Part shown: piece by piece, positions 66-58,528 of the stretch
How positions within the stretch are numbered: position 1 is the first letter of the stretch
Layout of the letters: the number at the start of each line of letters is the position of its first letter
Assembly: GCA_964513505.1 (NCBI GenBank)
Contig: CAZENL010000004.1
Location: 1-62,411 of the forward strand
Length of the DNA stretch: 62,411 nucleotides
Source: an uncultured Anaerolineaceae bacterium
GTDB taxonomy: Bacteria; Chloroflexota; Limnocylindria; Limnocylindrales; CSP1-4
Direction: 5' to 3'
Position numbers and translations under genes: made by a program
The notes under the pieces: generated by a model
Told to the model about the DNA's origin: nothing
What the model saw: the letters and a program-made list of their open reading frames with translations, nothing else
Database searches by the model: none

Positions 66-434
66 TCAGGCCGGCGAGAAGACGCCCTCGCGGAGCCAGC
101 CATGCCAACCACACCCGGCATATTTTTCCGCCGGGTTCTCTGGATTGTGTGAAAGGCAGTTGATCGAGGGATGCAGCGTGGGCTTTTCGATATTGCCATC
201 CCAAGCCCAGACCTTGTTCTCGGGCGGCTTCTTTCCGTTGACGATCCAGATCGAGCCGCAGTTTCCATGCCCGAGCGGGCAACCGAAATTGAAGCGCCCG
301 CGCTGGCCTGGCGCCGGCGGAGCTGCCGCGCTCTGCCCCATAGTCTCGAAACGGAACTCGCCCGGAGCTCGCGGGAATGGCGTCATCACCGGATGCCCGG
401 GATCGAGAGCAATATGTTTTCCCTCGACGCTCAT
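66..434 (-). CDS. DUF6527-like Cys/His protein
   Basis: Start moved to MSVEGK (ATGA overlap at 431-434). Motifs FGCP..GNCG, WAWDGNIEKPTLHPSI, CGWHGWLREG. Confidence 0.7.
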   Translation of the reverse strand: MSVEGKHIALDPGHPVMTPFPRAPGEFRFETMGQSAAAPPAPGQRGRFNFGCPLGHGNCGSIWIVNGKKPPENKVWAWDGNIEKPTLHPSINCLSHNPENPAEKYAGCGWHGWLREGVFSPA

Positions 435-1585
435 GCCGCGATCAGCTTCCGCAGCTCGGGCCCACAATGCACATCGACGACAAGGTGGATGCGCTCCACA
501 TCGGATGGATTGACCACCGCATGAGGCTTGCGGGTGTCGATATAGCAGAGCGTCCCTTGCGGGAAGTGGAGCTGCCATTCCCGCCCATCGAGCGCCCAGG
601 AGCGGAAGACGCAGCGCGGATCGGTGACGATCGGGATATGCAGCCGGGCGATCTGGCCATCCTTGGTCCCGGCCTCGGGATCGGTGATATCGCTATGGCG
701 GGTGAGCTCGCCATTGCCGGCGGCCAGGCGCATGAAGCGCACGCGCTGCTTCTTGCCGGGGATGCGATCGACCAGCGCCATGGTGCTGACCATGATCTGC
801 CCGAGCGCCGTCAAGCCGCACTCGGCCTTCATGCGCTCCGGGTTCTTGGCCTTCCAGTCTTTCGACATTTCGGAGGGCTTGATGATGAAGCTGGTATCGG
901 ATGGATCGAAGCCGGCCAGGGCGAAGCTCGTCCAGCTCTTGCGCTTGTTGTAGCTGGAATAATGCTGAGCCCACCGGCCGCTCTCGATGTGGTCGAGCTC
1001 GCGCCGCACGCCGGCGAGATCTTCGGGGCTGGCGGCGCCATCGCCGCGGAGGCTGATCACCTTGATGCCGGGCACATCGGCCGGATCGAGCTGCTCGATG
1101 ACCGGCGGCGGCCCAAACCACCAAAGGCCCTTTAAGTCCGAGCTGGCGGCGATCTTCGTCATGGCGCGCCGGAAGCCCATGGTTTCGAGAAGCAGGCACA
1201 GCGCCGGGTTCTCGACATGGCCCTCCAGCCAGGCGCGCTTCGCGCCGGAGCGCTCGATCAGGGTGTTGATGATCTTCCGCTTCCCGCCAGGCGAGCCGGC
1301 GATCGAGCGGATGAAAAGATCGCCAGCCTCGATCTTGGCGACGCGGCCGGCGAAATCGGTGTGGCTGGAGCCGATCGTATGGTGGCGAAACATGGCGATC
1401 GCTTCGAGCTTGCCGTCGATCGCCGTCCACATGAGCTGCCCGGCCGCCCTGGCATCGGCGACGTCACGCTCTTTCGGCAGGCCGAAGGCGCCGTAGCAAT
1501 GGGCTTTGAACTCGGCGCGGTAGAGCGCGGCCGCTTCCTTGAGGAAGCTCATGGGAAATCCGCGGGACCATTCCGGCGCCGTCAT
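431..1585 (-). CDS. GNAT-like domain fused to Asp/Asn beta-hydroxylase-like 2OG-Fe(II) oxygenase
   Basis: N-half AWLEGHVENPALCLLLETMGFR fits the GNAT beta5-alpha4 end. C-half has RVRFMRL, HSD, RLHIPIVT and IDTRKPHAVVN..RIHLVVD (HxD...H jelly-roll). Confidence 0.7.
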   Translation of the reverse strand: MTAPEWSRGFPMSFLKEAAALYRAEFKAHCYGAFGLPKERDVADARAAGQLMWTAIDGKLEAIAMFRHHTIGSSHTDFAGRVAKIEAGDLFIRSIAGSPGGKRKIINTLIERSGAKRAWLEGHVENPALCLLLETMGFRRAMTKIAASSDLKGLWWFGPPPVIEQLDPADVPGIKVISLRGDGAASPEDLAGVRRELDHIESGRWAQHYSSYNKRKSWTSFALAGFDPSDTSFIIKPSEMSKDWKAKNPERMKAECGLTALGQIMVSTMALVDRIPGKKQRVRFMRLAAGNGELTRHSDITDPEAGTKDGQIARLHIPIVTDPRCVFRSWALDGREWQLHFPQGTLCYIDTRKPHAVVNPSDVERIHLVVDVHCGPELRKLIAA

Positions 1586-1586
1586 G

Positions 1587-1796
1587 TCAGCCGATATCGA
1601 TATCGGCGCGAGAGAGCATGTAGATCAAAAGGAGCAAGCAGATGAGCAGGATCGCCAAGAAGGCGACCGCGACCCATCCGGCGGTCCACCACCAATTCAG
1701 TCCGAAAACATGATGGGCCAACCAGCCGACGAAGCCGAGGAGTCCGGCGATGAGGGCCGCGCTGGTGATTTGAAATCCGAGAGTTTGCCAGTCCAT
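1587..1796 (-). CDS. small two-TM membrane protein
   Basis: Start MDWQTLG; two hydrophobic stretches; fills the gap between neighbours. Confidence 0.55.
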   Translation of the reverse strand: MDWQTLGFQITSAALIAGLLGFVGWLAHHVFGLNWWWTAGWVAVAFLAILLICLLLLIYMLSRADIDIG

Positions 1797-1828
1797 GAGC
1801 CACGCCCCCTTGATGCCGAGGCTCAGCT

Positions 1829-2569
1829 TTACACCGCCGGCGGCCGATCGCCCAGCACATTCCACATGAGCCGGCGGCCGCGCCCGCGCGCCATGAGCTG
1901 CTCCCATGCTTTGCGATCGTAGTTTCCGCAGCTCGGGAACGGGGAGCTGGCCGGCGTCTCCTCCGCGAAATCATAGGGGCAGGGCACCAGCTCGACGTTT
2001 GGCGGGAAGGCCTGCTTCTGATTCCGGCTGGCCAGCCCGACAGTCACGCCAAAGACCCGGCTCTGGGGGAAGGCCCGGCCGAGGCAGCGCGCCAGCATCC
2101 CCGAGCCCGTCGCGCACCAAACCTCGTCCACCGGCCCAGCCTGAGCGGCCACCCGGGCCATGACCGCCTCGAAGGGGCTGGTGGCGCCGGGGATATCGAA
2201 GCCCAGCGGCAGGAAGAGCGCGCCAGCCTGGGCGGCATAAGACCGGGCCCGGTGCTGGACAACGCTCATGCGGCCGGCCGGGACTTGGAAGAGCGTCGCG
2301 CCATTGCGGAAGGCCGCCTTCTGGCGCCAGTGGAATTCCTTGCGCTTGGCATAAAACAGCGTGACGGCCACGCCCTTGCGGCGCCCATAGACCGAGAGCG
2401 CATAGGGCGCGCCGCCGCAAAATGGACCGCCGAAGACGATTTCCTTCGCGCCGGCGACGATGTGCGGGAGAAACCTGATCTTGGAGCCGCCGTCGAGCAA
2501 ATCCTCGCGGACAACCAGCACGCCGCCATGCTCCTCGATGATCGGAGCGGCTTCGTACCACTCAGGCAT
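1829..2569 (-). CDS. PLP-dependent fold-type II enzyme (ACC deaminase/D-Cys desulfhydrase-like)
   Basis: Start MPEWYE. VVREDLLDGGSKIR (Schiff-base Lys) and VWCATGSGML (phosphate loop). Confidence 0.7.
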   Translation of the reverse strand: MPEWYEAAPIIEEHGGVLVVREDLLDGGSKIRFLPHIVAGAKEIVFGGPFCGGAPYALSVYGRRKGVAVTLFYAKRKEFHWRQKAAFRNGATLFQVPAGRMSVVQHRARSYAAQAGALFLPLGFDIPGATSPFEAVMARVAAQAGPVDEVWCATGSGMLARCLGRAFPQSRVFGVTVGLASRNQKQAFPPNVELVPCPYDFAEETPASSPFPSCGNYDRKAWEQLMARGRGRRLMWNVLGDRPPAV

Positions 2570-2939
2570 TGCCGGCGGCTTCTGCCAGCGTGAGGAAGCT
2601 GCTCGGCCGAGCATTGTCGCGCTGCCGCTCCATCGCCAGCTTGCAACACTTTTCGAGCTGGACGAGGAGCTCCTCATGCTTGTCGATGCCGAGCTGCTCC
2701 TTCAGAGCGGCGTTCATCGCCTTGGTGCTGCGATCGATATCCTCCCGCGTCTCGCGGATGAGCTGGCGGCCGACGCCTGGCGGGAACAAGTGCTTGCACC
2801 CATCGCATTGCAGCGCCGCCGCCCAGCATCCTTCGGCCACATCGTATTCGGCGCCGAAGAGAACCTCGCCGCTGCCCTTGGTGATGACGAAATGGAGGAA
2901 CGCCTTGAGGTTGGCCTTCAGCGCGGCGGTGTCAGTCAT
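2562..2939 (-). CDS. hypothetical protein with CxxC
   Basis: Start MTDTAA, ATGA-coupled; contains CDGC. Confidence 0.6.
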   Translation of the reverse strand: MTDTAALKANLKAFLHFVITKGSGEVLFGAEYDVAEGCWAAALQCDGCKHLFPPGVGRQLIRETREDIDRSTKAMNAALKEQLGIDKHEELLVQLEKCCKLAMERQRDNARPSSFLTLAEAAGNA

Positions 2940-27555: not shown

Positions 27556-27762
27556 ATGAGCGGCCAGCAGACCGGCAAAGTGAAGTTTTTCAACGAGGCG
27601 AAGGCCTTCGGTTTCATCGCCCCCGATGGCGGCGGGAAGGATATCTTCGTGCACAAGACCGGTCTCGGCCGGGGCGTCGTTCTCACCGAAGGCCAGAAGG
27701 TGAGCTTCCGGACCGAGAGCGATCAGAAGGGCGTCAAGGCGGTTGACGTCGAGCTGGGCTGA
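27556..27762 (+). CDS. cspA: cold-shock domain protein (CspA family)
   Basis: TGKVKFFNEAKAFGFI (RNP1), DIFVH (RNP2), GQKVSF. Confidence 0.95.
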   Translation: MSGQQTGKVKFFNEAKAFGFIAPDGGGKDIFVHKTGLGRGVVLTEGQKVSFRTESDQKGVKAVDVELG

Positions 27763-27835
27763 AAAGAAAAAGGCGGCCGGGGATTAAGCCGGCCGCCAGT
27801 TAAGGGAGGAAACGCCCAGGAAGGGCGGCGGCTTC
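27763..27835 (-). ncRNA. alpha-r8/suhB (MmgR-like) small RNA
   Basis: Minus strand: hairpin CGCCC-UUCCU-GGGCG, then UUUCCUCCCU, UAACU, and terminator GGCGGCCGG-N8-CCGGCCGCC-UUUUU. 5' end is approximate. Confidence 0.75.
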
Positions 27836-27890
27836 GCAATCAAGGATCGCAATACCGCGCGGGAGTTCTCTACCACATCGCCGGAAAGAA

Positions 27891-27919
27891 AAAAGGCCCC
27901 GAGCTGATCGGGGCCTTTT
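27891..27919. terminator. bidirectional intrinsic terminator ending the late operon
   Basis: AAAAGGCCCC-N9-GGGGCCTTTT. Confidence 0.8.
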
Positions 27920-27941: not shown

Positions 27942-28391
27942 CTAGGGACACGACTGAAGTGGATACTGAAGCCCGGCCGACACCCTCATATAGCTGACCT
28001 GAAGGTCGCTGATTTGCGCCGATATACTTTCAGCCAAAGGGGTATTGTTGGCGCGCCGAGCGGAACACTCCGTCGCGTGCATCCCGATAATCTGCCCGGC
28101 GATGATCGTCGCCTTTAGATCGTTGGTGTCAGCGCGCATCGCCGTCTTCATTTCAGCAATGCTCGCCTCGGCAGTTTTGAAGCGGGCGTTTACATCGGCC
28201 GCCTGGGCGAAGCCCATAAAACCGAAGGTGTTGAGGAAGCCCCACATCGCCGCCGCCTGAAGCATCGCCAGGCCATAGCCGCAGACGATCGAGTAGGCCA
28301 CTGTGGTGCGCCAGCGATACTCCGGCGTCGGGGCGCCATCCTCCGGCGGCTTCAGAGCCGCGGCGACGTCTTTGATGAAATCGGTCGGCAT
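27942..28391 (-). CDS. membrane protein of the lysis region
   Basis: N-terminal TM followed by a helical domain. Confidence 0.6.
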   Translation of the reverse strand: MPTDFIKDVAAALKPPEDGAPTPEYRWRTTVAYSIVCGYGLAMLQAAAMWGFLNTFGFMGFAQAADVNARFKTAEASIAEMKTAMRADTNDLKATIIAGQIIGMHATECSARRANNTPLAESISAQISDLQVSYMRVSAGLQYPLQSCP

Positions 28392-30323: not shown

Positions 30324-33300
30324 CTAGTTATAGATGAAGGTGGCGGTGGCCACGCCGCCGTCGCCGGGGACGTTACCAGAACCGCCGCCGCCATCGGCGC
30401 CGCCGCCGCCCGAGCCGCTCCCTGATCCGCCGCCGGCGCCAACGCTGCCAACGCCACCGGGTGTGCCGGCTGCGCCGCCAGTCTGCACCGAGCCAGTCGG
30501 CACGGCCGTGCCGGTTTGCGTCGCTGTCCCGCCGGCGCCAAAGCCGGCCGCCACGGCGCCAACGCCGCCATGGCTGGTCAGCGTGAGCGTGCCGGCATGG
30601 ATCGGGCCCGTCACGGTCGAAACGACGCCGCTGGTCCCGGTGGTATTGGTGCCCAGAGCGCCCGGCCCGGCCGCGCCCAGGGACCAATTCAAGCTGCCCC
30701 CATTATCGAAAGCCGGCGTGAGCGGATAGGTGACGTCATTGAGGCCGCCTTCGCCAGAGCCGCCGCCCCATGTGGTGCCATCGCCGCAGGCGCCGGCGGC
30801 GCCGGAGCCCTGAAGAAGTATCTGCACGGAAGTCGCGCCGGCGGGAATGGTGTCGGTTCCGGTGAGAGCTGCTCCCCCAACCGCGCCCATATAGCTCCGC
30901 GTGACAGGGAAGGCGGGCGTGCCGCCGCTGATATTCAGGTTGAAGGTGGCGAGGTTGCCGAGCTGGAAGGAAATGTCCTGAGCGGCGATGACGAAATCCC
31001 AATTCCCGGGCCCGACCGCGGCCGTGGTGGCGGCGGTGGTGCGGCTGGCCGTGCTCAGCAGCGTGAAGCCGGTCGGGAAGACATTGCCGTGCGGCCCATA
31101 ATAGATGTTGTAGCCGCGCACCGAATTGAAGGGCAGATCAATCCAAGTCAGGTTGACCACGTTGCCGCTCTGCGTCGCGCCGAAGCCGGAGACGGCTGGG
31201 AGCTTCGGGGGCGCGCCCAGGGTGATCGTATAGGGCGAAACATCGCTCAGGCTTTGCAGGCCGCCGCCGCGATTGTTGATCGCCAAGATTTTGAAATACA
31301 TCGTCTGCCCGACCTGATCGGGCGTGAAGGGGATGCGGCCGAGGAGGGCGTCGATCTTGACGAAGGGATCGCCGGTCAGATGGCCGACGATCGCCGAGCC
31401 CTGCTGGCCGCGCCGCAAATAGGTTGTGAGGTCGTAATGGTTCGCCGAGGTCAGCGTCGCCGTCGAATAGCTGACATACTCGAGCCCGGCCGCGCCGCCC
31501 ACCATGCAGACGGTGTTGCCCTGATCCGCGTCGGTATTGCTCCCGCTCCCCAGCTCGCCCGCGCTCTGGGCGAGATTGACGGAGAGCGTGTTGACGCCAT
31601 CGGGATCGGCGCCGGCCGGGAAATTGGCCGTGAGGAGGCCCATGGTGGTGGCGCCATTCACGGAGTCGATCAGCTTGTAGGGGCCGCCGGAATCGCTGGC
31701 GCCCCAGATTTGCGCGCCGCCGAAGATCGCCGGGCTGCTCCCGGAAATCGCCACGCCCATTTCGAGGCCTTGGTTGGTGGCCAGCGCCGGCGGAATGGCG
31801 AAGACGATCGGATCATTCACATCGCCCGGGTCCACATCAAAGTCCGGATCGAAGCCGCTGCCTGGCTTGAGCGTGAACTGCGCCGGCAGGCCCGCGCTAT
31901 CGACGAAAATCTCGGCGGTGCAATCGAAGCCGCCATCATCGCGCTCGTCGATCTGGGTCAGCCGCACCGGAATGCGGGTGATGCCGGGGAAGTTCGGATC
32001 GGTGACAGTCTCGAAATCCATCGGGTCGAAAAGGACATATCGCGGATCGACGGAGAATTTGGCGGTGTTGCTGATCGCCTCGTCTTGGAGCTGGAGGAAG
32101 GCGCTGGTGTTGGCCGCATTGAGGTCGCAAAACATCTGCGCCGAAGCGGTGCCCTGCGGCGAGCGCTCCCCATATTGCTGGCGATGGGCCATATCGAAGG
32201 CGGTGGCCTCCGCCGGCGCGTACTGATTGGCGCGATCGAGGCAATCGAGGCGAAAGGTGTTGACCTGATCGAGGATGTTCTTGCGGCTGATCTGGACCGG
32301 ATCGTTGCCCGTCTCGATAAAATCGTCATATCCAAGATCGAAGTCGGGCGCGGTGTCGGGCGTGAAAGTGTAGCCATTCGCGGTCAGGGCATTGACGCTG
32401 CGCGGGATGAACTGGATCACGCCTGAGGACTCGACCACATCGGCATAGGTGTTCGTGACAATCTCGTCGATCATCGAGCTCGCATTGGTCTGCGAGCTAT
32501 AGGCGGGGGAAATCCAGAGCCCCAGCGCCAGCGATGAGTTCTGATATTTGGTCAGCGCGACGATCGAGGCATATCGGACATGTGGGTGCGTGCCGGAGAG
32601 CGAGCTGTGGAAGGTATATTCGCCCGTTGTCTCGTTGAAGGCATACTCGGTGGCGGCCGCCGGCACGCCGGCGACGCATGTCAGGAGGGCGCCCGCGGCG
32701 TTGGTGGCATTGATGTTGAAAAGGAAGTTCGGGACCGTCACCTTGTAGGGCGCGCCCGGCACTGTCACGGCATCATTGACGGTCGCCACATCGCCCACAT
32801 CGCCGGCCTGAAGGCCAGCGCCCTCGATCGGATCGGTGAGCAGGAAGGCGACGATCAGGCTGGGATCGGCATCGCCGCCATTCTGGCATCCGTTGCCGCC
32901 ATAGGTGCCCGGCGCGCTGCCGGCGAATATCCAGCCGCCCTCGAAATTGTAGCTCGGGATATTGGCCGAAGTGCCGAGATTGGCGTCGGGCACGCCCAGA
33001 TAGGCGATCCCGCTGTAGCCGATCGCCTCGGTCGGATGGTTGGAGACGAGGAAGCTCCAGGGCGATTGCCCGATCAGCCCGTCGAATAGGCTGAAGGGCG
33101 CGTAGCCAGCTTGGAGGGTCTGGGAAATCCAAGTGTTGTAGATGTTCGCGATCCCGCTCGGGCCGCCTGAGCTGAGCCCGTAAGCGAAGCTGGCGAGATA
33201 CTGCGTTTGTGATCCAGCGCCGCCGCCCTTGCCGCCGCCGCCGATGATGCCGCCCTTGCCGCCGCCGCTGCTGGGATTGTTGACGGTGATGGATTTAAAA

Positions 33301-33449
33301 TCACCATACCAAAGCAGATTGCCCGCCTGGCGCGATGTGCCGAAATAAAGCGGGATGCAAATGCCATAGACCGAAGACTGGATCGGCATCTTCGTGAGCG
33401 TTGGCGGCGCGGTGGTTTTGAGGCTGGTCCCAGCTCCGAAGAACGCCAT
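30324..33449 (-). CDS. tail tip/host-specificity protein (J-like)
   Basis: SVYGICIPLYFGT..AGNLLWYGDF; phage-tail_3-like centre; FN3-like domain; Gly-rich C-terminus. Confidence 0.85.
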   Translation of the reverse strand: MAFFGAGTSLKTTAPPTLTKMPIQSSVYGICIPLYFGTSRQAGNLLWYGDFKSITVNNPSSGGGKGGIIGGGGKGGGAGSQTQYLASFAYGLSSGGPSGIANIYNTWISQTLQAGYAPFSLFDGLIGQSPWSFLVSNHPTEAIGYSGIAYLGVPDANLGTSANIPSYNFEGGWIFAGSAPGTYGGNGCQNGGDADPSLIVAFLLTDPIEGAGLQAGDVGDVATVNDAVTVPGAPYKVTVPNFLFNINATNAAGALLTCVAGVPAAATEYAFNETTGEYTFHSSLSGTHPHVRYASIVALTKYQNSSLALGLWISPAYSSQTNASSMIDEIVTNTYADVVESSGVIQFIPRSVNALTANGYTFTPDTAPDFDLGYDDFIETGNDPVQISRKNILDQVNTFRLDCLDRANQYAPAEATAFDMAHRQQYGERSPQGTASAQMFCDLNAANTSAFLQLQDEAISNTAKFSVDPRYVLFDPMDFETVTDPNFPGITRIPVRLTQIDERDDGGFDCTAEIFVDSAGLPAQFTLKPGSGFDPDFDVDPGDVNDPIVFAIPPALATNQGLEMGVAISGSSPAIFGGAQIWGASDSGGPYKLIDSVNGATTMGLLTANFPAGADPDGVNTLSVNLAQSAGELGSGSNTDADQGNTVCMVGGAAGLEYVSYSTATLTSANHYDLTTYLRRGQQGSAIVGHLTGDPFVKIDALLGRIPFTPDQVGQTMYFKILAINNRGGGLQSLSDVSPYTITLGAPPKLPAVSGFGATQSGNVVNLTWIDLPFNSVRGYNIYYGPHGNVFPTGFTLLSTASRTTAATTAAVGPGNWDFVIAAQDISFQLGNLATFNLNISGGTPAFPVTRSYMGAVGGAALTGTDTIPAGATSVQILLQGSGAAGACGDGTTWGGGSGEGGLNDVTYPLTPAFDNGGSLNWSLGAAGPGALGTNTTGTSGVVSTVTGPIHAGTLTLTSHGGVGAVAAGFGAGGTATQTGTAVPTGSVQTGGAAGTPGGVGSVGAGGGSGSGSGGGGADGGGGSGNVPGDGGVATATFIYN

Positions 33450-33450
33450 C

Positions 33451-33957
33451 TTATGTCCACCCCTTGAGGGCGAAGAAGCGCCGCGGCCGTGGCTGATTGC
33501 GGAGCGCCCTTATCTCAAAGACGCTGTTCAGATAGCCGGCTCTGTCCGCATCCTCGAAGCTGACCGGCCGGGCGGTATAGGCATGGAGGACGCGGGGCCA
33601 TTCGACCACGATCGCGCCATGGGAGAATGTCCAGCCCATCCGCCAGAGCACAAGATCGCCGGGCTTGACGGCGCGCTCCGGCGGGGCGGCAACCTCGTCG
33701 CAATATCGCAGGATCGCGTTCATGTAGAGCTCGGCCTCGGCTTCCTTGCCGGGCTCCGGCTTGTTCATGTGCCAGTCTTTTGAATAGTGCGGCAGCTTGG
33801 CGATCGGCGGGATCAGCCCAGCGTTCTCGAAGGCACCGACGAGGAATGTCAGGCAATCGGCGCCGGCGCCCTTAACGCGCGCCTCCGGGTGATAGGGCGT
33901 GCCCTGCCATTCGATCGCCTCGGCGACCAGCTTCGCGCGCTCCAGCTCCTCGGTCAT
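33451..33957 (-). CDS. NlpC/P60 tail peptidase
   Basis: WQGTPYH..GADCLTFL, SHGAIV; start MTEELE. Confidence 0.9.
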   Translation of the reverse strand: MTEELERAKLVAEAIEWQGTPYHPEARVKGAGADCLTFLVGAFENAGLIPPIAKLPHYSKDWHMNKPEPGKEAEAELYMNAILRYCDEVAAPPERAVKPGDLVLWRMGWTFSHGAIVVEWPRVLHAYTARPVSFEDADRAGYLNSVFEIRALRNQPRPRRFFALKGWT

Positions 33958-34865
33958 ACGCCCACCACCGGCTGAGGGATGAAGGGCTGTCCGCGATAGC
34001 GCAGCGCGACATTCGTGGCGTTGTAGAATTTCGGGCACCCGTTGACGCCGGTCAGGGATTTATCGCAGCCCTGATAAAGCGTGAAAGTGTCGCCGACGCC
34101 CAGCGCGCCAGGCAGCGGGTTCAAAAGCGTGATGTTGGCATTCGCGCCGGCGCCGCATGTCCGCACCGTGCGCTTATTCCCGTTCAAGGCTCCGCTGGTG
34201 ATCAGCACCATCCCGAGATTGTAGAGCCCGGCCGGCGCGTTGCCGGCGACATTGGCCGCCACGATCTTGTTCGGCGTGCAGCCGGCGGCGGCCGCGCAAT
34301 TCTCCTTAAAGGCGTTGATGTTCACGCCGCAGGCGGTGTCGCCCAGATTGTTCAAGCACCCCGACTCATAGACATTCCGCGGGAGCTGCTGGTTGAGGAG
34401 CTGCTTCTTGCTGTTGACGGTGAAGGTGACGAAGGACTGGCCGATCGGATCGGGCTGGGCGATCAGGCCGATGAATTTGCGGATCAGGCCGACGCGGGTA
34501 TCGCCATAAGTCGGCATGTTGGCCTGAAGGAGCTGGACCTTCGCGCCGTCGAATATCCCCTCATAGCAGGCTTGGAGGAAAGGCAGCGAGCCGATCATGG
34601 CGGCGCCGGGAATCACATCGAATGTCAGCGTGTCCACTTCGGTGCCGACGCGCCAAGAGCACTTCGCCTTGCTCCCGCTCCGATCGAAATATGGCCCCGT
34701 TTGCCCGCCGGCGGAATAGAGCTCGCCATCGCCGGTCACATCGACGTCGCCATTGGTGTAGAGCAGCCGCCCGCCGCCGTTGGCCAGATCGATCTTCCAA
34801 AGATCGACTTGGAAATAGCGCCGGGTGGCGAAGAGGGTGAGGAGCTCCGGGCTGACTGGCTTCAT
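33954..34865 (-). CDS. DUF2163 hub protein (GTA-like)
   Basis: Start MKPVSP; CLNNLGDTACGVN, GDTFTLYQGCDKS...C..F..RGQPFIP. Confidence 0.85.
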   Translation of the reverse strand: MKPVSPELLTLFATRRYFQVDLWKIDLANGGGRLLYTNGDVDVTGDGELYSAGGQTGPYFDRSGSKAKCSWRVGTEVDTLTFDVIPGAAMIGSLPFLQACYEGIFDGAKVQLLQANMPTYGDTRVGLIRKFIGLIAQPDPIGQSFVTFTVNSKKQLLNQQLPRNVYESGCLNNLGDTACGVNINAFKENCAAAAGCTPNKIVAANVAGNAPAGLYNLGMVLITSGALNGNKRTVRTCGAGANANITLLNPLPGALGVGDTFTLYQGCDKSLTGVNGCPKFYNATNVALRYRGQPFIPQPVVGV

Positions 34866-35071
34866 CCGGCGAGCTTCTCGTCTTTGGCGATGCTGGAGAG
34901 GATGGCCGGCGTCTCGATCGAGCAATCCTCGCCGAAGAAGGCCAGGATGCCGCCCGGCTTGCCGAAGGCCTTCCCGATGAGCCGGCGCGCCTCGATGACA
35001 GTCGGCGCCGCGACGCGGGCGCTTACGAGCTGCCGATCCTTGTCCGTGCAGTTGAAAATCCAAAGCTTCAT
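34862..35071 (-). CDS. small hypothetical inserted in the tail-tip module
   Basis: ATGA overlaps at both ends. Confidence 0.6.
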   Translation of the reverse strand: MKLWIFNCTDKDRQLVSARVAAPTVIEARRLIGKAFGKPGGILAFFGEDCSIETPAILSSIAKDEKLAG

Positions 35072-35706
35072 TTCAGGCTCGTGAAGGTTTGCTTGTCCAG
35101 CTTGTAGATATTCTGCCCGAAGCGGCCGAAGTCCATCGTGTCATCGTCGAAGGAGCAGGGGAAGTAGTAGCTGAAGTCAGCGGTGATCGGCAACGCGGCC
35201 GCCGGCACATGGCCGGCGAGGAAGGTGACGAGGCCCGGCGTCCCTGAGCTCCAATCCGTCACCGAATAGTCCACCCCCTGCGTCTTCAGGACGGCGTTCA
35301 CATAGAGGTTGAAAGTGGCGCCGAGGTTGGGCGCGAGGATCGGCGCCGTCGCGCCGCCCGATGTGCGCTGGAGCTGATAGGTGGTGGCCAGCAGCCCGCT
35401 GGTGTTGGCGATCGCCTGGCCGACTACGACATTGTCGTTCGGGTCTTGGAAGAGGAAGGAATCGAAGGCGCCCTTGAGCTTCTCGAAGAAGCCGCGGAGC
35501 TGCTCCAGCTCGGTGAAGGTGCTCGGCCCGAACAGGCCTGTGCGGAGGAAGTTGAAAGTAACCGTCCACTGATACAGCGGCGACGCCCATTGCGCGATCG
35601 AGACGATCTTGCCGCTGACCGCCTTCGGCTTGCGGGTCGAGAACATCGAGGTCCGGTCGATCGTAATGTCGCGGCCCTTGAGGGTCGGGAAAACGGTGGT
35701 GCTCAT
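35068..35706 (-). CDS. DUF2460 distal tail protein
   Basis: GFFEKLKGAFDSFLFQDPND, ITADFSYYFPCSFDDD. Confidence 0.85.
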   Translation of the reverse strand: MSTTVFPTLKGRDITIDRTSMFSTRKPKAVSGKIVSIAQWASPLYQWTVTFNFLRTGLFGPSTFTELEQLRGFFEKLKGAFDSFLFQDPNDNVVVGQAIANTSGLLATTYQLQRTSGGATAPILAPNLGATFNLYVNAVLKTQGVDYSVTDWSSGTPGLVTFLAGHVPAAALPITADFSYYFPCSFDDDTMDFGRFGQNIYKLDKQTFTSLK

Positions 35707-48822: not shown

Positions 48823-49818
48823 TTAGTTGTTGGTGATGTTGTAGAAGAAGAAGCCCAGATCGGAGCCGACGAGCTTCATGTCGAAGCTCATTTCGGTTTC
48901 GATGCGGACCGTGCCCAGGCCGCGCAGCGGCACCGGGATATTGCTCACGCGGACGCCCATGTTGTTGAGGCCGGTGAAGCCCGCCCATGGGAAGACATAC
49001 CCCGCGCTCGGCACCATCAAGCCAGGCGCCGGCGCCGCATAAGCGAGCAGGGCATGGTTGCCGGTGACGAAGGAGAAGCTGTCAGCGGCGCCTTCCGCGG
49101 CGGAATTGTAAACCGCCTTGGAGACAACGACCTTCTCCACATCGAAGGCCTCGGCGAGGAGCTGCGGGGTGATTTTGCCCGCATAGGCCGGCGAGGTGTA
49201 CTTGATGCGATCGATCACCAGCGGGTGCTTCTTCAAGGCCTTATAGACCTTGTAGCCGAGCACCAGCACATTCGGCTCCATGCCGGTATTTTCCAGCACC
49301 ACAGTCTGGGCGTCGGAAATATCGGTGAAGGGATCGCCGTCCGCATCATTGTTCCAATAGGTGCGGGTGGTGGTGCCGTTGCCATTGGCCGCGCCGGCGA
49401 CTTCGTTCGCCCACAGGCCGGTGGTGAAGTACTTCGTGACGAAGATGCGGTCCTTCTTGATGAGCATCTTCTGCATGAGCATCCGGGTCGCCCCGATTTC
49501 CGGCTCGACGGCCGGATCGGCATTGCGGCGCATCTGCTCGCCGATATCCTGATGGAGCGCATAAACCGCCGCCAGATAGGAATCGGTGTCGAGGTTGTAG
49601 CCAGTGCCAGCCGACTCGGTGGCATCCGCGCGCTGCTGGGCTTCATCGCGGAAGAAGTCGCCCTTGCGATACCGGAAGTATTTGTCGGACTGGTGCTGGA
49701 CGGGCACCGGCGGGAAAACCACATCGGCGATGTAGGAGTCCGCCTTCTGAAGATAGGCGGTGGCGATCATCGATAGCGCTGCGTCAATATGGACAGCGCC
49801 CTGTGTTGGTTGCGGCAT
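48823..49818 (-). CDS. major capsid protein
   Basis: VHIDAALSMIATAY, IADVVFPPVPVQHQSDKY, PNVLVLGYKVYKALKKHPLVIDRIKY. Confidence 0.9.
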   Translation of the reverse strand: MPQPTQGAVHIDAALSMIATAYLQKADSYIADVVFPPVPVQHQSDKYFRYRKGDFFRDEAQQRADATESAGTGYNLDTDSYLAAVYALHQDIGEQMRRNADPAVEPEIGATRMLMQKMLIKKDRIFVTKYFTTGLWANEVAGAANGNGTTTRTYWNNDADGDPFTDISDAQTVVLENTGMEPNVLVLGYKVYKALKKHPLVIDRIKYTSPAYAGKITPQLLAEAFDVEKVVVSKAVYNSAAEGAADSFSFVTGNHALLAYAAPAPGLMVPSAGYVFPWAGFTGLNNMGVRVSNIPVPLRGLGTVRIETEMSFDMKLVGSDLGFFFYNITNN

Positions 49819-53216: not shown

Positions 53217-54263
53217 CTAGAACGGGATCGCGGGAAGCTGGATCGGCGGGAGCTGTGCCGGGCGGCGAACGCCTGGCGCCGGCGCGCCGGTGAAGGGATT
53301 GGCAGAAACCCGGGAAAGATCGGTCACATACTTTTCCGAGCAGCGGCAGTTGACATGCGCGAGCGGCGCCATGATCGGGCCGTCCGCGCTCATATAGGGC
53401 TGGAAGACAGTCACGCCCCGGGGATTGAGCAGCGGGATCGAGGCGCAGATCGGGCAGAGCCGCTCGTCGATCGTCACTTGCCAGAAGCGCGTCACTTCGC
53501 TTTCGCGGAGCCGGCCGCCGCCAACCGCCTGCACATAGGCGTCGCGGATGCCGCCCACGGCCGCCTGCAAACTTTCCTGCTGGGCGATCGTCTGCGCCCG
53601 ATACATCAAGCGCCGCTCGGCCGAGGCCAGAACCAGTCGATCGACCGTCTCCTGCTTGGCCGGCGCGCCGTCCACTATGCTGCGGACGATCGGATCGAAG
53701 CGCGGATCGCGAAGAGCCCGGACAAGGGCCTGCGGATCGCCGTTCTCCAGCATCCGCCGGTAATTCGACAAGGCCAGAGCATCGCGCGGCGTCAAGCCGA
53801 TCACTTGCTTAAGCGCGCCGGCAATCTCAGCCGGATCGGCGCCCAGGCGAAGGGCCTGAAGGAGCTGCTGCCGCACCACATCGGCGGCCGGCCCGAGGAT
53901 GGAGCCGATGAATGTCTGCTGTGCGCCGGCGAGCTGGGCGGCGGCGACCAAAGGATCATAGACCACCAAGCCGCCAAGGCTCCCGGCCGTCTCAGCTTCG
54001 GCCGCATCGACGAAAGTATCGGCGACCGGCTTGTAGGCCTGCTTGAGCGCGTCGGCCACGCCCGGGCCGCCGAGGATGGTGGCGAGGCCGATCGTGTTGC
54101 CGCTGGCGATCATGCCCTTGAGATCGGCATGATCGAGGGCAGTTCCAAGGGCGGCCAGGCCGGCGGCGATGGCTTTGGTGATCCGGCTTTCCCGCTGCTC
54201 GGCGATCTGGATCGCAAGATCGTCGGGCCGCTGGTAATGCTCGGCCGCGAGAAGGCTAGGCAC
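53217..54263 (-). CDS. MuF/gp7-like minor head protein
   Basis: YRAQTIAQQES, RFWQVTIDERLCPIC, PLAHVNCRC. Confidence 0.85.
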   Translation of the reverse strand: MPSLLAAEHYQRPDDLAIQIAEQRESRITKAIAAGLAALGTALDHADLKGMIASGNTIGLATILGGPGVADALKQAYKPVADTFVDAAEAETAGSLGGLVVYDPLVAAAQLAGAQQTFIGSILGPAADVVRQQLLQALRLGADPAEIAGALKQVIGLTPRDALALSNYRRMLENGDPQALVRALRDPRFDPIVRSIVDGAPAKQETVDRLVLASAERRLMYRAQTIAQQESLQAAVGGIRDAYVQAVGGGRLRESEVTRFWQVTIDERLCPICASIPLLNPRGVTVFQPYMSADGPIMAPLAHVNCRCSEKYVTDLSRVSANPFTGAPAPGVRRPAQLPPIQLPAIPF

Positions 54264-55899
54264 CGGAACTTTTCCTGAAGTACCCGCGGAGCTTCTTCTT
54301 CGGCCGGGCCTTCGCGATCAACCCCTGCTTCTCCATGCGGCGGAGCAGGCTGGCGCGGATCATCTTCTGAAGATCATCGCCGGCGCCCTGATCGCCGACG
54401 CCCTCAGCGCCAGCGTCGCCAGCGGCGTCGAGGATCGAGCGGGCCTGCGAGTCCTCCGAAATGTCCGGGATGCCGGCGGCGTCGCGGAGATAATTCTCCA
54501 CCTCGTCATCCGGGAAGAGCCGGGCGCCCGCCTGCGACATGCGGAGGACGAAGTTGCTGAGCCCGTCCAGATCGATGCGCTGCGGCATGTCGGGCTGGAA
54601 GCGCGGCATGGTGTCGTAGCTGAAACCGTTCAGGCGCCAGAGCCGCGGCAGCAAATGATCGTTGAGCACATCGGCGTTTGACTGAAGCCAGCCCTCGATC
54701 GCCTGGAAGAAAAGATCGACCTTCGTCTCGGCGAGGTTTTGCGCGCCGCGCGAGGTATGGCCCATCGAAAGGAAGTCGGCCAGGACGCTGGTCATGATAT
54801 CGAGCTTGTAGCGCTCGATACTCTTGTCGCCATCGACGGAGCCTTTGCCGGCAGTCGGCGTTACCAGCTTGAAATCATACATCGGGATATTCGTCGGCTT
54901 CCCGTCCGCATCCCGGTAAGGCGTGCTCGGCAGGAGCGCGCCCATCTGCTCATCGATCCGCACGTTGGTGACGATGCGCCGATACATGGCCATGGCCGCC
55001 TGCGCCGGCCCGGCAATCGTCTCGTCATTGCTCGCCGCGTTCTCCACCAGCTCTTGCGGGATGGTGATGACCGGGAAGCCGGAGAAGCGCTCGAACATGA
55101 TCGCTTCCTGCTCTTCCATCCGCTTGGTGAAGAACCAAGGGCGATAGGCGGTGCGGAGGATCGAGTATCCCTCCGGGTTGTTCTTATGCGAGCGCGGCCG
55201 GAAGAGCAGCAGCTTCTCGATCGGAATGTCGATCAGCGGGCCGACCCATGGCTGCTGGGTCATGCCGAGGATTTCGCCATCGGTGTCGAAGAACCATTTC
55301 AGGACGGTATCCTGCCCGCGGATCGGGAGCTTGCGGATGCCGATCAGGCCGTCCTTGTACTTCGAGCGCGGGAGCTGCTTGCCGCCGGGGCCGTTGCCGG
55401 GATCGGGGCCGAGGCGGCGCTTGTAGCAAATCTCGTGCGGCGCATAGCCGTAGGGCAGCATCGAGAGCGTCTCGGTGATGAAATCGCTCCAAGTGTGGCT
55501 CATGTCCGACATAAGGCTTTCGACAAACTCGGCGCCGAATTGCGCTTCGGGTTTGTCGCTGGCGGCTTCCACCCGCCACTCGACTTGGCGCATGGATTGC
55601 TGGATCGCGAAGTTGATCGCCCCGATCGTGGGCGAGTTGTCCAGCATTTCGCGGTATGTCCGCGCGGCCTGGCGGCCGACGAGCTGGGGCAGGAATTCTT
55701 CCCGGACCCATCCGCCCCACTGGCGCAGGCCGGAAGAGCCAACATCGGAGAACGTCATCCCGGCCGACATGACAGGGATCGGCCAGCCGCCGGAGCCGTC
55801 CATCAAGGGATCGCGCGTCGGCAGCGGCGCGTCGCCGGGCTTCGGCACCGGCGTGGGCGGGAAGGCGTCGGGATTGAGGGGGCCGGCGGGATCGCTCAT
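54256..55899 (-). CDS. portal protein
   Basis: WGGWVREEFLPQL.G, YREMLDNSPTI, MLPYGY..HEI, NNPEGYSILR. Confidence 0.9.
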   Translation of the reverse strand: MSDPAGPLNPDAFPPTPVPKPGDAPLPTRDPLMDGSGGWPIPVMSAGMTFSDVGSSGLRQWGGWVREEFLPQLVGRQAARTYREMLDNSPTIGAINFAIQQSMRQVEWRVEAASDKPEAQFGAEFVESLMSDMSHTWSDFITETLSMLPYGYAPHEICYKRRLGPDPGNGPGGKQLPRSKYKDGLIGIRKLPIRGQDTVLKWFFDTDGEILGMTQQPWVGPLIDIPIEKLLLFRPRSHKNNPEGYSILRTAYRPWFFTKRMEEQEAIMFERFSGFPVITIPQELVENAASNDETIAGPAQAAMAMYRRIVTNVRIDEQMGALLPSTPYRDADGKPTNIPMYDFKLVTPTAGKGSVDGDKSIERYKLDIMTSVLADFLSMGHTSRGAQNLAETKVDLFFQAIEGWLQSNADVLNDHLLPRLWRLNGFSYDTMPRFQPDMPQRIDLDGLSNFVLRMSQAGARLFPDDEVENYLRDAAGIPDISEDSQARSILDAAGDAGAEGVGDQGAGDDLQKMIRASLLRRMEKQGLIAKARPKKKLRGYFRKSSGA

Positions 55900-55905
55900 C
55901 GCGCG

Positions 55906-57510
55906 TCAGCTTCCCATATCGGGGCGCGGCGCCGTCACGATGATCGGGGCCATGATCGGCGCTGTCATTCCCTCAATCTCCAAAATATCATTGAACGCGC
56001 CCGATGCGCCGTCAACCTGATCGTCATGTGGCGCGCCGGGGAAGAGCTCCAGCTCCTCCAGAAAGGTTTCGTTCCAAGGCCCCTTCACAAGATAGACGTT
56101 TTCGCCTTCCGCTTGCACCGATAGGGGCTCGGCCCGATCAACCTTGCTGCCCGTCTCGGGCCTGATCCGCACCTTCCAGCCCGCCAACATTTGAATGAAG
56201 GAGAGCTTCTGAGATTTGCCCGCCTGGCCCGGGTCTTGGGGAAGGCGAACGTAAACGTCTTTGCCGTCTGTCTCGGCGGTGTTCCTGATCGTGTTCGCGA
56301 CCAGCTTCGCGGAACCACGGAAGCGGATCACATGCTCGATATAGTAGGCCCCGCCGGATTTGACCATCTTCAGGCCGACCGTCCAGTCAGGATCGGTGCC
56401 CGGCGTCCGCTCGGAGGCCGCCAAATCCCAGCGGCGAACCCGGATGCCCTTCGCCGGCGCGGCGCCAACGATGGCGAAATTGCCCCGCTTGAAGAGGCCG
56501 CCTTCGCGCGGCACCGGCCGCTGCTGATACTGGCCGGCCGCGGCATAGGAGCCGAGCGTGGCCTTGTCGCGCTCGACCGCCGCCTTCGGGAAGCGGGCTG
56601 GGAAGAGCAGCTCGCCCTCCTCGGTGCGCGGATCGACGAAGCCGATTTCCGGGATCGAGCAGCGCCGGGCCAGCTCGAATTCCATCGGGCACATGAAATG
56701 AACATAGCCGCCCAGGGCGATGATCACCCCCGAAAGATCGTTGGAGTGAAGCCGCTGCATCACCACCACGATCACGGAGGCCATCGCGTCATTGACGCGG
56801 CTCGTCACCGCCTCGCGGAATGTCCGCGCCGTCTTTGCCCGATCGGTGTCGCTCTCGGCCGTATCGACGGAATGGGGATCGTCGATGATCACGCGATCGC
56901 CGCGGCCGACCGTCATGCTGGCCATCGGCACGGCCATTCGGCCGCCGTGCATCGAATTCTCGAAGTCAGCCTCTCCGGTGCGGATCAGCGTGATTTTGTC
57001 GCCCCATAGGGCCTGATACCAAGGCGAGGCCACAAGATCGCGCATCTTGCGGGAATCGCGCGTCGCCCATTCCTCCTTGTAGGAGGCGGTGAAATATCGC
57101 AGCCCCGGCTTGCCGCCCGGGCCCCATTCCCAAGCCGGCCAGAGCACCCCGATGAGGAGGGATTTCATCATGCCCGGCGGAATGTTGATGAGCAGGCGGG
57201 TGATCTTGCCGGCCGTCACGGCTTCGAGGAGCGTGCAGATCCACCGGATATGCCAGTTATCGACGAAGGCGGTGGTGGGCTCCAGCACATGCCAGGCGCG
57301 CTTGACGAATTCGTAAAAGGTTTTGCACTCGGCGCGGATGGCCTCGGCGTTGGCCTTGGTCTTTTCTAGCTCTTCAGCCTGTAAGCGCCGGACGCGCTCG
57401 GCCTTCAATCGTAACGCCCACTCCGCACTTGCTGAGAAGCCACGCGAGCTGCTCAAATTCCTTGACGGTGAGCTTGGTGAGGTCGAGGTCATTGAAAAGC
57501 GGCGCGCCAT
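55906..57510 (-). CDS. terL: terminase large subunit
   Basis: LLINIPPGMMKS, VIIDDPH, RRWDLAAS, HDDQVDG. The true start may be TTG at 57408. Confidence 0.95.
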   Translation of the reverse strand: MARRFSMTSTSPSSPSRNLSSSRGFSASAEWALRLKAERVRRLQAEELEKTKANAEAIRAECKTFYEFVKRAWHVLEPTTAFVDNWHIRWICTLLEAVTAGKITRLLINIPPGMMKSLLIGVLWPAWEWGPGGKPGLRYFTASYKEEWATRDSRKMRDLVASPWYQALWGDKITLIRTGEADFENSMHGGRMAVPMASMTVGRGDRVIIDDPHSVDTAESDTDRAKTARTFREAVTSRVNDAMASVIVVVMQRLHSNDLSGVIIALGGYVHFMCPMEFELARRCSIPEIGFVDPRTEEGELLFPARFPKAAVERDKATLGSYAAAGQYQQRPVPREGGLFKRGNFAIVGAAPAKGIRVRRWDLAASERTPGTDPDWTVGLKMVKSGGAYYIEHVIRFRGSAKLVANTIRNTAETDGKDVYVRLPQDPGQAGKSQKLSFIQMLAGWKVRIRPETGSKVDRAEPLSVQAEGENVYLVKGPWNETFLEELELFPGAPHDDQVDGASGAFNDILEIEGMTAPIMAPIIVTAPRPDMGS

Positions 57511-57943: not shown

Positions 57944-58528
57944 CTAACCCATGAGCGCAATCGACTCTCGCGGAATCGAAATAGCACCTTTGCGCCCGAG
58001 CATGTCAAGCAGGATGCCGACCCGCTCCCGTCGATCGAAGGCGACGAGGCCGACCAATCCTTCGAGCGGCCCATCGATCACGCGGACGCGCGAGCCGGGT
58101 TTAAGCTGTTGTTTTTTCGGCGCGAGGAGCCGGAAGACGCCGCCAGAGGATGCCATCGCCTCCTTGAGGGCCGGAACGACCCGCGCCGGCAGGGCGAGCG
58201 GCGCCTTCGGTCGAAAGCGCCGGGCGATTTCCTCGCGGCTGGTCGGAATGCCGCTCGCTCGCTGGATGCCGAGGATCGTATGGACGCCCTTGAGCTGGAG
58301 GATTTTGGGCCAATCGTCCTCCGCATCCTCGGCGGCATCGAATTCGGCGAAGATGTAGCTGGGATAAAGCGGCCGCTGGACGATCGACTTCCGGCGGGCG
58401 TGGCTGATTTCCCGCTCCATGAGGGGGAGGAAGCTGCCGAAGCGCTGCTCTGGGATTTCGGCGATCGCTTGGCTGACTCTGGCCTCGTTGCCGGGAACGG
58501 TCTGGACAACATACCAAGCCCGCGCCAT
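57944..58528 (-). CDS. NusG/RfaH-family transcription antiterminator
   Basis: NGN domain WYVVQTVPGNE, PLYPSYIFAEF; KOW domain LKPGSRVRVIDGPLEGLVG. Confidence 0.9.
   Translation of the reverse strand: MARAWYVVQTVPGNEARVSQAIAEIPEQRFGSFLPLMEREISHARRKSIVQRPLYPSYIFAEFDAAEDAEDDWPKILQLKGVHTILGIQRASGIPTSREEIARRFRPKAPLALPARVVPALKEAMASSGGVFRLLAPKKQQLKPGSRVRVIDGPLEGLVGLVAFDRRERVGILLDMLGRKGAISIPRESIALMG

Follow-up and report, generated by a model that had tools for sequence, protein, structure and literature searches.

A predicted alphaR8/MmgR-family small RNA gene in a rhizosphere siphophage and its near-identical cellular counterpart

Introduction

Does the short intergenic region between a cold-shock-domain gene (csp) and the last late gene of a rhizosphere phage encode a host-type regulatory RNA and, if so, where did the gene come from, how would it be controlled, and what would it do in an infected cell? 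The question was raised by an initial annotation of a 62,411-nt stretch of DNA (hereafter the window, i.e., the whole stretch that was analyzed). That annotation proposed a phage-encoded alpha-r8/suhB (MmgR-like) small RNA (sRNA) at positions 27763-27835, with a 5' hairpin, an anti-Shine-Dalgarno 10-mer at 27803-27812, a linker and a Rho-independent terminator, and named an Infernal cmscan comparison with Rfam suhB as a check. As possible roles it suggested a redirection of host carbon storage or sponging of host targets.

The mechanism of alphaR8 RNAs was described only recently, in 2025, for Caulobacter SisA and the sponge that acts on it, CrfA (PMC12559287). SisA represses TonB-dependent receptors, transporters and metabolic genes through Hfq-dependent pairing of its 10-mer with 5'UTR/ribosome binding site (RBS) sequences; compensatory mutations proved this pairing, and it is the same 10-mer that CrfA masks (PMC12559287). 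Mutants of mmgR and suhB over-accumulate PHB (PMC7143759; bioRxiv 10.64898/2025.12.09.693200). SuhB of Sphingopyxis granuli TFA, from the same Rfam family, represses thnR translation, and its deletion raises PHB (bioRxiv 10.64898/2025.12.09.693200). This SuhB is chromosomal and LysR-type-regulated and has no phage link. A literature search found no paper linking mmgR/alphaR8 with phages, and an earlier mention may exist. The family's 2016 phylogeny paper reportedly invokes lateral transfer.

Results

Phage Identity and Genomic Setting

The window belongs to a rhizosphere siphophage and carries terminase, portal, capsid, RcGTA-like tail, RecT and DnaB genes. In total, 72 genes in four blocks were predicted by a GC3-based gene call, and proteins were identified by PHROG and Pfam searches (Table 1). 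Further assignments included a Mu-F-like protein, a RecT-like annealing protein, a ParB-like protein, DnaB, a tail-assembly protein and two DNA methyltransferases. Terminases of Rhizobium/Sinorhizobium and Erythrobacter phages were the closest relatives of the large terminase (TerL; 41-47% identity), and no DNA-level relative of the window was found among GenBank phages by near and distant BLAST searches. For the 149-aa neighbor and the 1041-aa tail protein, viral and metagenome collections contained only relatives of 36% identity or less; none of the six viral loci scanned around such relatives had the sRNA within 8 kb. Terminal repeats were not found in the window, and a scan of 50 predicted proteins, every one longer than 180 aa among them, revealed no integrase, serine recombinase or transposase.

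The same phage was present in rhizosphere metagenome assemblies (ENA ERZ27245396, a 54-kb contig; ERZ27245402; and Logan SRR8464957), with identical gene order and 99.98-100% identity to the window. Because the phage contigs were this similar, population variation was uninformative. At 27 kb from each window end, the RNA gene has phage genes on both sides, a layout repeated in the independent metagenome assemblies. Its mid-window position and its neighbors place it inside the phage and not in a host flank, and the description of the RNA as phage-encoded is thereby upheld.

Upstream of the sRNA on the same strand, a roughly 30-kb late operon ends with a gene that is terminated by the hairpin at 27891-27919. 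On the other side, csp and a DUF3309 gene are encoded on the plus strand. Together, DUF3309, csp and the sRNA resemble a host-type stress/regulatory cargo cluster located where the early and late arms meet. At the left end of the window, the genes at 431-2677 (minus strand) encode an Asp/Arg beta-hydroxylase-like protein and a PLP-dependent enzyme-like protein; either these are auxiliary metabolic genes or the left end is non-phage.

Table 1. Coordinates of the sRNA gene, its parts and selected genes in the 62,411-nt window
Feature	Position	Strand	Basis or remark
Predicted alphaR8/MmgR-family sRNA gene, ~72-76 nt	27762..27837	minus	RF00519 match and fold
sRNA 5' end (inferred)	27833-27837	minus	Model position 1 and the S. 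meliloti PhaR box-TSS distance of 13 nt (PMC12542648)
sRNA 3' end (predicted)	U-tract 27771-27762	minus	
Weak 3-bp hairpin	27837-27828	minus	RNAfold MFE
5' hairpin CGCCC-UUCCU-GGGCG, 5 bp; the family's weak hairpin just upstream of the seed	27827-27813	minus	MFE and paired columns of the Rfam consensus
10-mer UUUCCUCCCU, anti-Shine-Dalgarno seed, exact family match	27812..27803	minus	Unpaired in MFE and centroid structures
Linker UAACU	27802-27798	minus	
Rho-independent terminator	27762..27797	minus	Terminator scan and fold
Promoter-proximal block shared with dw_265	27834..27860	minus	Alignment; soil/root contigs match 27798-27860
PhaR/AniA-type operator position; phage retains right half only	27850..27870	minus	Consensus score
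Hairpin with T-runs on both sides	27891..27919	both	Minus-strand terminator scan; plus-strand 12-bp hairpin, then UUUUGAGUUU
Last late gene, upstream of sRNA on the same strand	27942-28391	minus	
csp, cold-shock-domain gene, 68 aa, convergent with sRNA	27556..27762	plus	Pfam CSD, 66.2 bits
DUF3309 small membrane protein gene, 51 aa	27297..27452	plus	Pfam PF11752, 71.7 bits
Tail module, phiJL001/RcGTA type	35068-35706 (DUF2460-like), 33954-35063, 30324-33449		PHROG/Pfam
Major head protein	48823-49818		PHROG/Pfam
Portal	54256-55899		PHROG/Pfam
Large terminase (TerL)	55906-57510		PHROG/Pfam
NusG-like protein	57944-58528	minus	First gene of the ~30-kb minus-strand late operon, which ends just upstream of the sRNA

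Family Match, Fold and Parts of the sRNA

The whole 62,411-nt window was compared with Rfam 15 by cmscan at the gathering threshold (GA). A single match was returned, RF00519 (suhB/mmgR, "Makes More Granules Regulator RNA"), at 27833..27757 on the minus strand. It covered model positions 1-77 of 77; its score of 58.7 bits exceeded the gathering score (41), with an E-value of 1.6e-9 for 62 kb and 4227 families. The limits first proposed for the RNA (27763-27835) differ by only a few bases from those set by the Rfam match and the terminator. Hairpin, 10-mer, linker and terminator were each found where the initial annotation had placed them, to which the minus strand is now added: with AGGGAGGAAA on the plus strand at 27803-27812, the family 10-mer is encoded by the opposite, minus strand.

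The minus-strand segment 27840..27757 folded at -33.5 kcal/mol (RNAfold; z = -3.25), and none of 200 shuffled sequences was as stable. In the MFE structure the seed and linker form a run of 15 unpaired nucleotides, UUUCCUCCCUUAACU (27812-27798). The terminator consists of a 9-bp all-GC stem, GGCGGCCGG/CCGGCCGCC, with an 8-nt loop (27797-27772), followed by the tail UUUUUCUUUU (27771-27762). This is the U-tail type typical of Hfq-dependent sRNAs. The layout is that of Sinorhizobium meliloti MmgR (RF00519, alpha-r8), i.e., about 77 nt with a weak 5' hairpin, a single-stranded UUUCCUCCCU and a Rho-independent terminator, and the 10-mer is identical to that of Caulobacter crescentus SisA-D (PMC12559287).

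With an above-threshold score over the full model, a single-stranded 10-mer, a weak hairpin upstream of it and a terminator, the phage RNA is almost certainly a member of the alphaR8/MmgR/suhB (RF00519) family. The alpha-r8/suhB (MmgR-like) label thus stands, on an end-to-end match above the curated threshold and on the structural hallmarks of the family (PMC12559287), and the 27,757-27,837 intergenic region should be labeled as ncRNA (RF00519). The N-formylglutamate amidohydrolase neighbor that defines the canonical single-copy synteny was absent at the phage sRNA, where the adjoining genes are csp and the phage late gene. Its absence is usual for paralogous or transferred copies and is not an exclusion criterion (PMC12559287).

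A Near-Identical Cellular Copy

Soil, root and rhizosphere contigs from unrelated runs matched 27798-27860 with 0-2 differences, beyond which, on either side, their sequences were unrelated. When one genome per species was scanned for a 30-mer from this block, a sole genome contained it, Rhizobiales bacterium dw_265 (JAAVUU010000005), whose copy scored 65.7 bits for RF00519. Phage and dw_265 were identical over 58 nt (27860→27803), comprising 27 nt upstream, the 5' hairpin and the 10-mer. Over 27860..27798 the identity was 62/63 nt, with a mismatch at 27802 followed by four matches and unrelated sequence beyond. The first 36 nt of the phage RNA are identical to those of the alphaR8 RNA of the candidate host. 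The terminators were unrelated (GGCCGCUC-UUCG-GAGCGGCC in dw_265 versus GGCGGCCGG-N8-CCGGCCGCC in the phage), and the two sequences also diverged further upstream of the shared block.

Flanks of the dw_265 type co-occurred with the phage in the same rhizosphere runs, at a depth of 5.7-7.9 compared with 12.7 for the phage in X1. Contigs from RNA runs (metatranscriptomes) matched the cellular variant only. These data are compatible with a co-occurring host lineage that transcribes its own alphaR8 copy.

Given the 62/63 nt identity, the phage gene looks to have been recently captured from a Rhizobiales host lineage. By the same near-identity, purifying selection in this phage lineage is undemonstrable. 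The phage copy differs from MmgR in having a viral carrier, no N-formylglutamate amidohydrolase neighbor and an unrelated terminator; the amidohydrolase gene was also absent from the 8 kb examined around the dw_265 copy, which is neighbored by an LpxH-like phosphoesterase and a secreted beta-propeller protein. At the dw_265 locus (L132), a perfect 14-bp inverted repeat, GGACGGACTTTGTCC-TTGC-GGACAAAGTCCGTC, lies upstream of the alphaR8 promoter (975-1010, minus strand); it either terminates the upstream gene or serves as an operator.

Control Region

The consensus for PhaR (AniA) is WNWDDNYGCRNYGCRNHHWNW; in S. meliloti, 13 nt separate the end of the mmgR site from the transcription start site (TSS) (PMC12542648). 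Like mmgR, the dw_265 copy has a PhaR/AniA-type operator just upstream, and both match the consensus at 20/21 positions (PMC12542648): the dw_265 box is TATTGTTGCAGCGCGGTATTG, with a core of 9/9, and the S. meliloti site is the published one. At the same place (27870→27850) the phage has GAGAACTCCCGCGCGGTATTG, which matches at 16/21 positions with a core of 7/9. Matches of at least 20/21 are rare, occurring at 4 of 124,782 window positions. Three further cellular variants, found as loose ends, kept the 9/9 core (TGCGGTGCG or TGCAGCGCG) and varied in the 10 nt downstream of the box.

The upstream border of the identity falls within the PhaR-type motif, and the left half-site and the TTGTTG (-35-like) element of the cellular copy have been replaced in the phage, a difference from mmgR as well. 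Their loss, evident from the sequence, may free the phage gene from PhaR or weaken its promoter. By homology, the TSS should be near 27833-27837.

The promoter scan detected no sigma-70 consensus promoter upstream of the sRNA. A sigma-54 promoter was considered by eye and rejected on spacing. A CTTGAT within 27834..27860 (minus strand) is a weak -10 candidate, since this stretch varies among the cellular variants. An alternative route of expression would be read-through from the late operon headed by the NusG-like gene. With no sigma-70 promoter and without the -35-like element, the gene is therefore possibly silent, or dependent on read-through or on a phage factor.

The same region contains a direct repeat, ATTGCGA-N6-ATTGCGA (27834-27853, minus strand), that is unique in the window; degenerate matches occurred at chance level. 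It may be the site of a regulator other than PhaR. In the dw_265 copy (L132, 927-975, minus strand) a third unit, TTGC(A/G), is spaced by the same 13 nt.

The Convergent csp Gene

The csp stop codon (27760-27762) abuts the sRNA U-tract, the last U of which coincides with the last base of the stop codon. On the plus strand, the hairpin at 27772-27797 is followed by AGUUAAGG and has no U-tract, and the hairpin at 27891-27919 does have one; the latter probably terminates the convergent csp transcript as well, according to the predicted structure. If not stopped at 27772-27797, the csp transcript would be antisense to the whole sRNA. In that case its 3'UTR would be fully antisense to the phage RNA, and likewise to nucleotides 1-36 of the host RNA.

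This arrangement permits a reading in which the plus strand is the active one, i.e., the csp mRNA reads through the weak first hairpin and its 3'UTR acts as an anti-sRNA sponge that titrates or destroys host alphaR8. The convergence of csp on the sRNA, with its stop codon touching the U-tract, and the order of the two plus-strand hairpins (27772-27797 without a U-tract, 27891-27919 with one) would suit such a sponge, and both a natural alphaR8 sponge, CrfA, and phage-encoded anti-sRNAs, AgvB and AsxR, are known (PMC12559287). A sponge would, however, have no need of an intact minus-strand terminator and U-tract or of a conserved promoter-proximal block, and at most other phage loci the RNA gene is co-oriented with its neighbors with no convergent gene. 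A promoter for csp was likewise undetected. We regard a sponge as distinctly improbable here.

alphaR8 Genes in Other Phages

At least 120 IMG/VR contigs contained an exact match to the 15-mer GGGCGTTTCCTCCCT, and at least 84 of these contigs (84/120 among the matches listed) had the full architecture of hairpin, seed and terminator, defined as a GCCC/GGGC-type hairpin and a GC-rich hairpin with a T-run at the right distance. Because the loci were ascertained by the 15-mer, seed conservation among them is uninformative, and some of the IMG/VR entries are predicted prophages with possibly imprecise borders. The Rfam GA was passed by 21 of the 27 tested loci of the full-architecture type. Genes flanking the viral loci formed clusters that included TerL, HNH endonuclease, NusG-like, S24 repressor and capsid proteins.

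Seven of the 120 listed viral matches belonged to one coding family in which the 15-mer is the reverse complement of an RBS (and start codon), without hairpin or terminator. Matches of this kind speak for a chance resemblance, in which an intergenic terminator merely lies beside a Shine-Dalgarno-like run. For the window such an explanation has a negligible probability, being refuted by the full-length covariance match (E 1.6e-9) and by the 62/63 nt identity to a 65.7-bit cellular gene.

Among GenBank phages, three scored above GA: Bradyrhizobium phage ppBeUSDA76-1 (62.8 bits), "Microcystis" phage Mwe-JY08 (62.8) and vB_MweS-yong2 (47.0). Two others, BDU-MI-1 (37) and ppBdUSDA122-1 (32), scored just below the threshold because of long hairpin insertions. 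None of these GenBank phages had an RNA annotated at the alphaR8 locus. The results suggest that dozens of phage or prophage genomes carry an unannotated Rfam-grade sRNA.

To our knowledge, the RF00519/alphaR8 family is restricted to Alphaproteobacteria (non-Rickettsiales). The phages deposited as infecting Microcystis, in which RF00519 was found at PP395640 42319-42402 (62.8 bits; L133) and OM681334 26411-26491 (47.0 bits; L134), may thus really infect alphaproteobacteria that live alongside Microcystis in culture.

In one lineage the RNA gene was immediately downstream of a NusG-like gene although the NusG-like proteins were only 21-60% identical, and an upstream TAGGGT (-10-like) motif was conserved. 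A position kept across this much protein divergence suggests that phages have retained the gene over the long term. Nine phage loci besides the window (L084, L029, L115, L034 and related) had the gene order NusG-like, alphaR8, HNH, TerS, TerL. There, the sRNA and its terminator could form a terminated late-operon leader that is read through by the NusG-like antiterminator. The 6S RNA of the lambda pR'-tR' region is an analogue of such a leader. In another phage group (L054, L087, L016 and related loci), alphaR8 was found between scaffold-like and major capsid genes in the same orientation (21 nt after the former, 89 nt before the latter); this element sits within a highly expressed structural operon. 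At two loci alphaR8 was found with tRNA genes: it abuts one at L114 (6071-6216, minus strand), where the two Rfam hits overlap by 8 nt, and it is near a three-tRNA array at L112 (108-398 and 2033-2106, plus strand).

In vB_MweS-yong2, alphaR8 (positions 2497-2577 of L134) has the lysis genes on one side and, on the other, a convergent integrase gene (2799-3932 of L134, minus strand), 222 nt from the 3' end of the latter. At this distance it may coincide with attP, making alphaR8 a candidate attachment site in that phage. Phages that integrate into tRNA genes rebuild the target gene at the junctions, and in lambdoid phages attP is located where the late and early arms converge. The equivalent proposal for the window is that the 58-63-nt shared block is the core of an attP, and that the phage integrates into the host alphaR8 gene and rebuilds it. 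Its appeal lies in the sharp block of identity (58 identical nt; 62/63) with unrelated flanks on both sides, in the location at the convergence of late and early arms, and in the yong2 arrangement. Against it, the site is neighbored by csp and DUF3309, and hybrid junction contigs were absent from runs with both forms, though short-word assemblies are unable to resolve such contigs. An integration site was rejected for this phage on the absence of a recombinase among the 50 scanned proteins, and we consider it very unlikely.

Discussion

The RF00519 family itself is known; what sets this member apart is that a virus carries it, that half of the operator has been lost, that the terminator has been exchanged and that csp converges on it. 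We favor, and hold to be reasonably probable, a reading in which the phage RNA mimics the host regulator: as an anti-Shine-Dalgarno repressor that depends on Hfq, it would supplement the alphaR8 RNAs of the host under control specific to the phage. This reading predicts transcription, Hfq dependence, host targets and a benefit to the phage, as follows. The minus-strand gene would be transcribed into an RNA of 72-76 nt ending at its own intrinsic terminator. Together with Hfq, and by analogy with SisA, the single-stranded UUUCCUCCCU would pair with Shine-Dalgarno regions of host mRNAs and repress their translation. Since the seed is identical to that of the host copy, the phage RNA would enlarge the host alphaR8 pool during infection or carriage, and its control would be uncoupled from the carbon/PHB status of the host. 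The cell would be held in an alphaR8-on state, with less uptake and receptor protein made and less carbon directed to PHB.

The identity of the seed to the cellular copy fits this mimicry, and a replaced terminator that is still a perfect 9-bp GC stem with a U-tract is as expected if minus-strand termination is selected. No complement of at least 9 nt to the seed region exists elsewhere in the window, hence the phage has neither a second copy nor a sponge site, and the targets are presumably host mRNAs. Duplex predictions for the 72 phage start regions gave only loop-rich, unconvincing self-targets.

A different account makes the gene a neutral, recent passenger, weakly or not expressed, that was picked up by illegitimate or homologous recombination with the -35/operator part left behind. 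An identity of 62/63 nt to the cellular copy does mean a very recent transfer, the host TTGTTG (-35-like) element and left operator half are missing with no promoter consensus in place, and the searches found no close relatives showing retention. The 3' part, however, is no truncated host fragment; it is a perfect intrinsic terminator, different from that of the host and correctly oriented with its U-tract, and full-length copies recur in many unrelated phage contexts, with retention in one lineage across 21-60% protein divergence. Taking both sides together, a passenger appears unlikely.

As a mimicking repressor, the phage RNA would stand apart from the known members of its family and from known phage riboregulators. 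DicF is one of the phage/prophage riboregulators of enterobacteria. Like the enterobacterial anti-sRNAs AgvB and AsxR (PMC12559287), the present RNA is a phage-carried small RNA that would enter host post-transcriptional networks, often via Hfq (here predicted). Whereas AgvB, AsxR and DicF are phage-specific RNAs or sponges, the phage copy described here is a near-identical core host sRNA. SisA-D are siblings at separate loci with unrelated promoters, to which the phage copy would be an extra sibling with its own control; SisA-D are chromosomal and sponged by CrfA, whereas the window has no CrfA-like site (at least 9 nt complementary to the seed).

A host regulator carried by a phage with an identical seed and altered control would, if true, be a clear case of post-transcriptional viral mimicry in Alphaproteobacteria, an idea that the mutants and reporters already available allow to be tested directly. 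The survey of viral contigs also suggests that phages may carry some of the extra "sibling" copies, and account for part of the "lateral transfer", invoked for the alphaR8 family. Beyond this phage, we offer as a tentative suggestion, possible but short of probable, that alphaR8 is a widespread auxiliary regulatory gene of alphaproteobacterial phages, captured or kept repeatedly with a rewired promoter, in this phage through loss of the PhaR operator half and the -35 element, by which the host feast/famine-transporter-PHB regulon is locked in a state favorable to the phage. A phage alphaR8 could also block superinfection via repression of TonB-dependent receptors. In some lineages the alphaR8 element may double as an antiterminator-read late-operon leader or as an integration site. 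CspA abundance is lowered in the suhB mutant of Sphingopyxis (bioRxiv 10.64898/2025.12.09.693200), which, beside the csp neighbor of the phage sRNA, is a curious coincidence.
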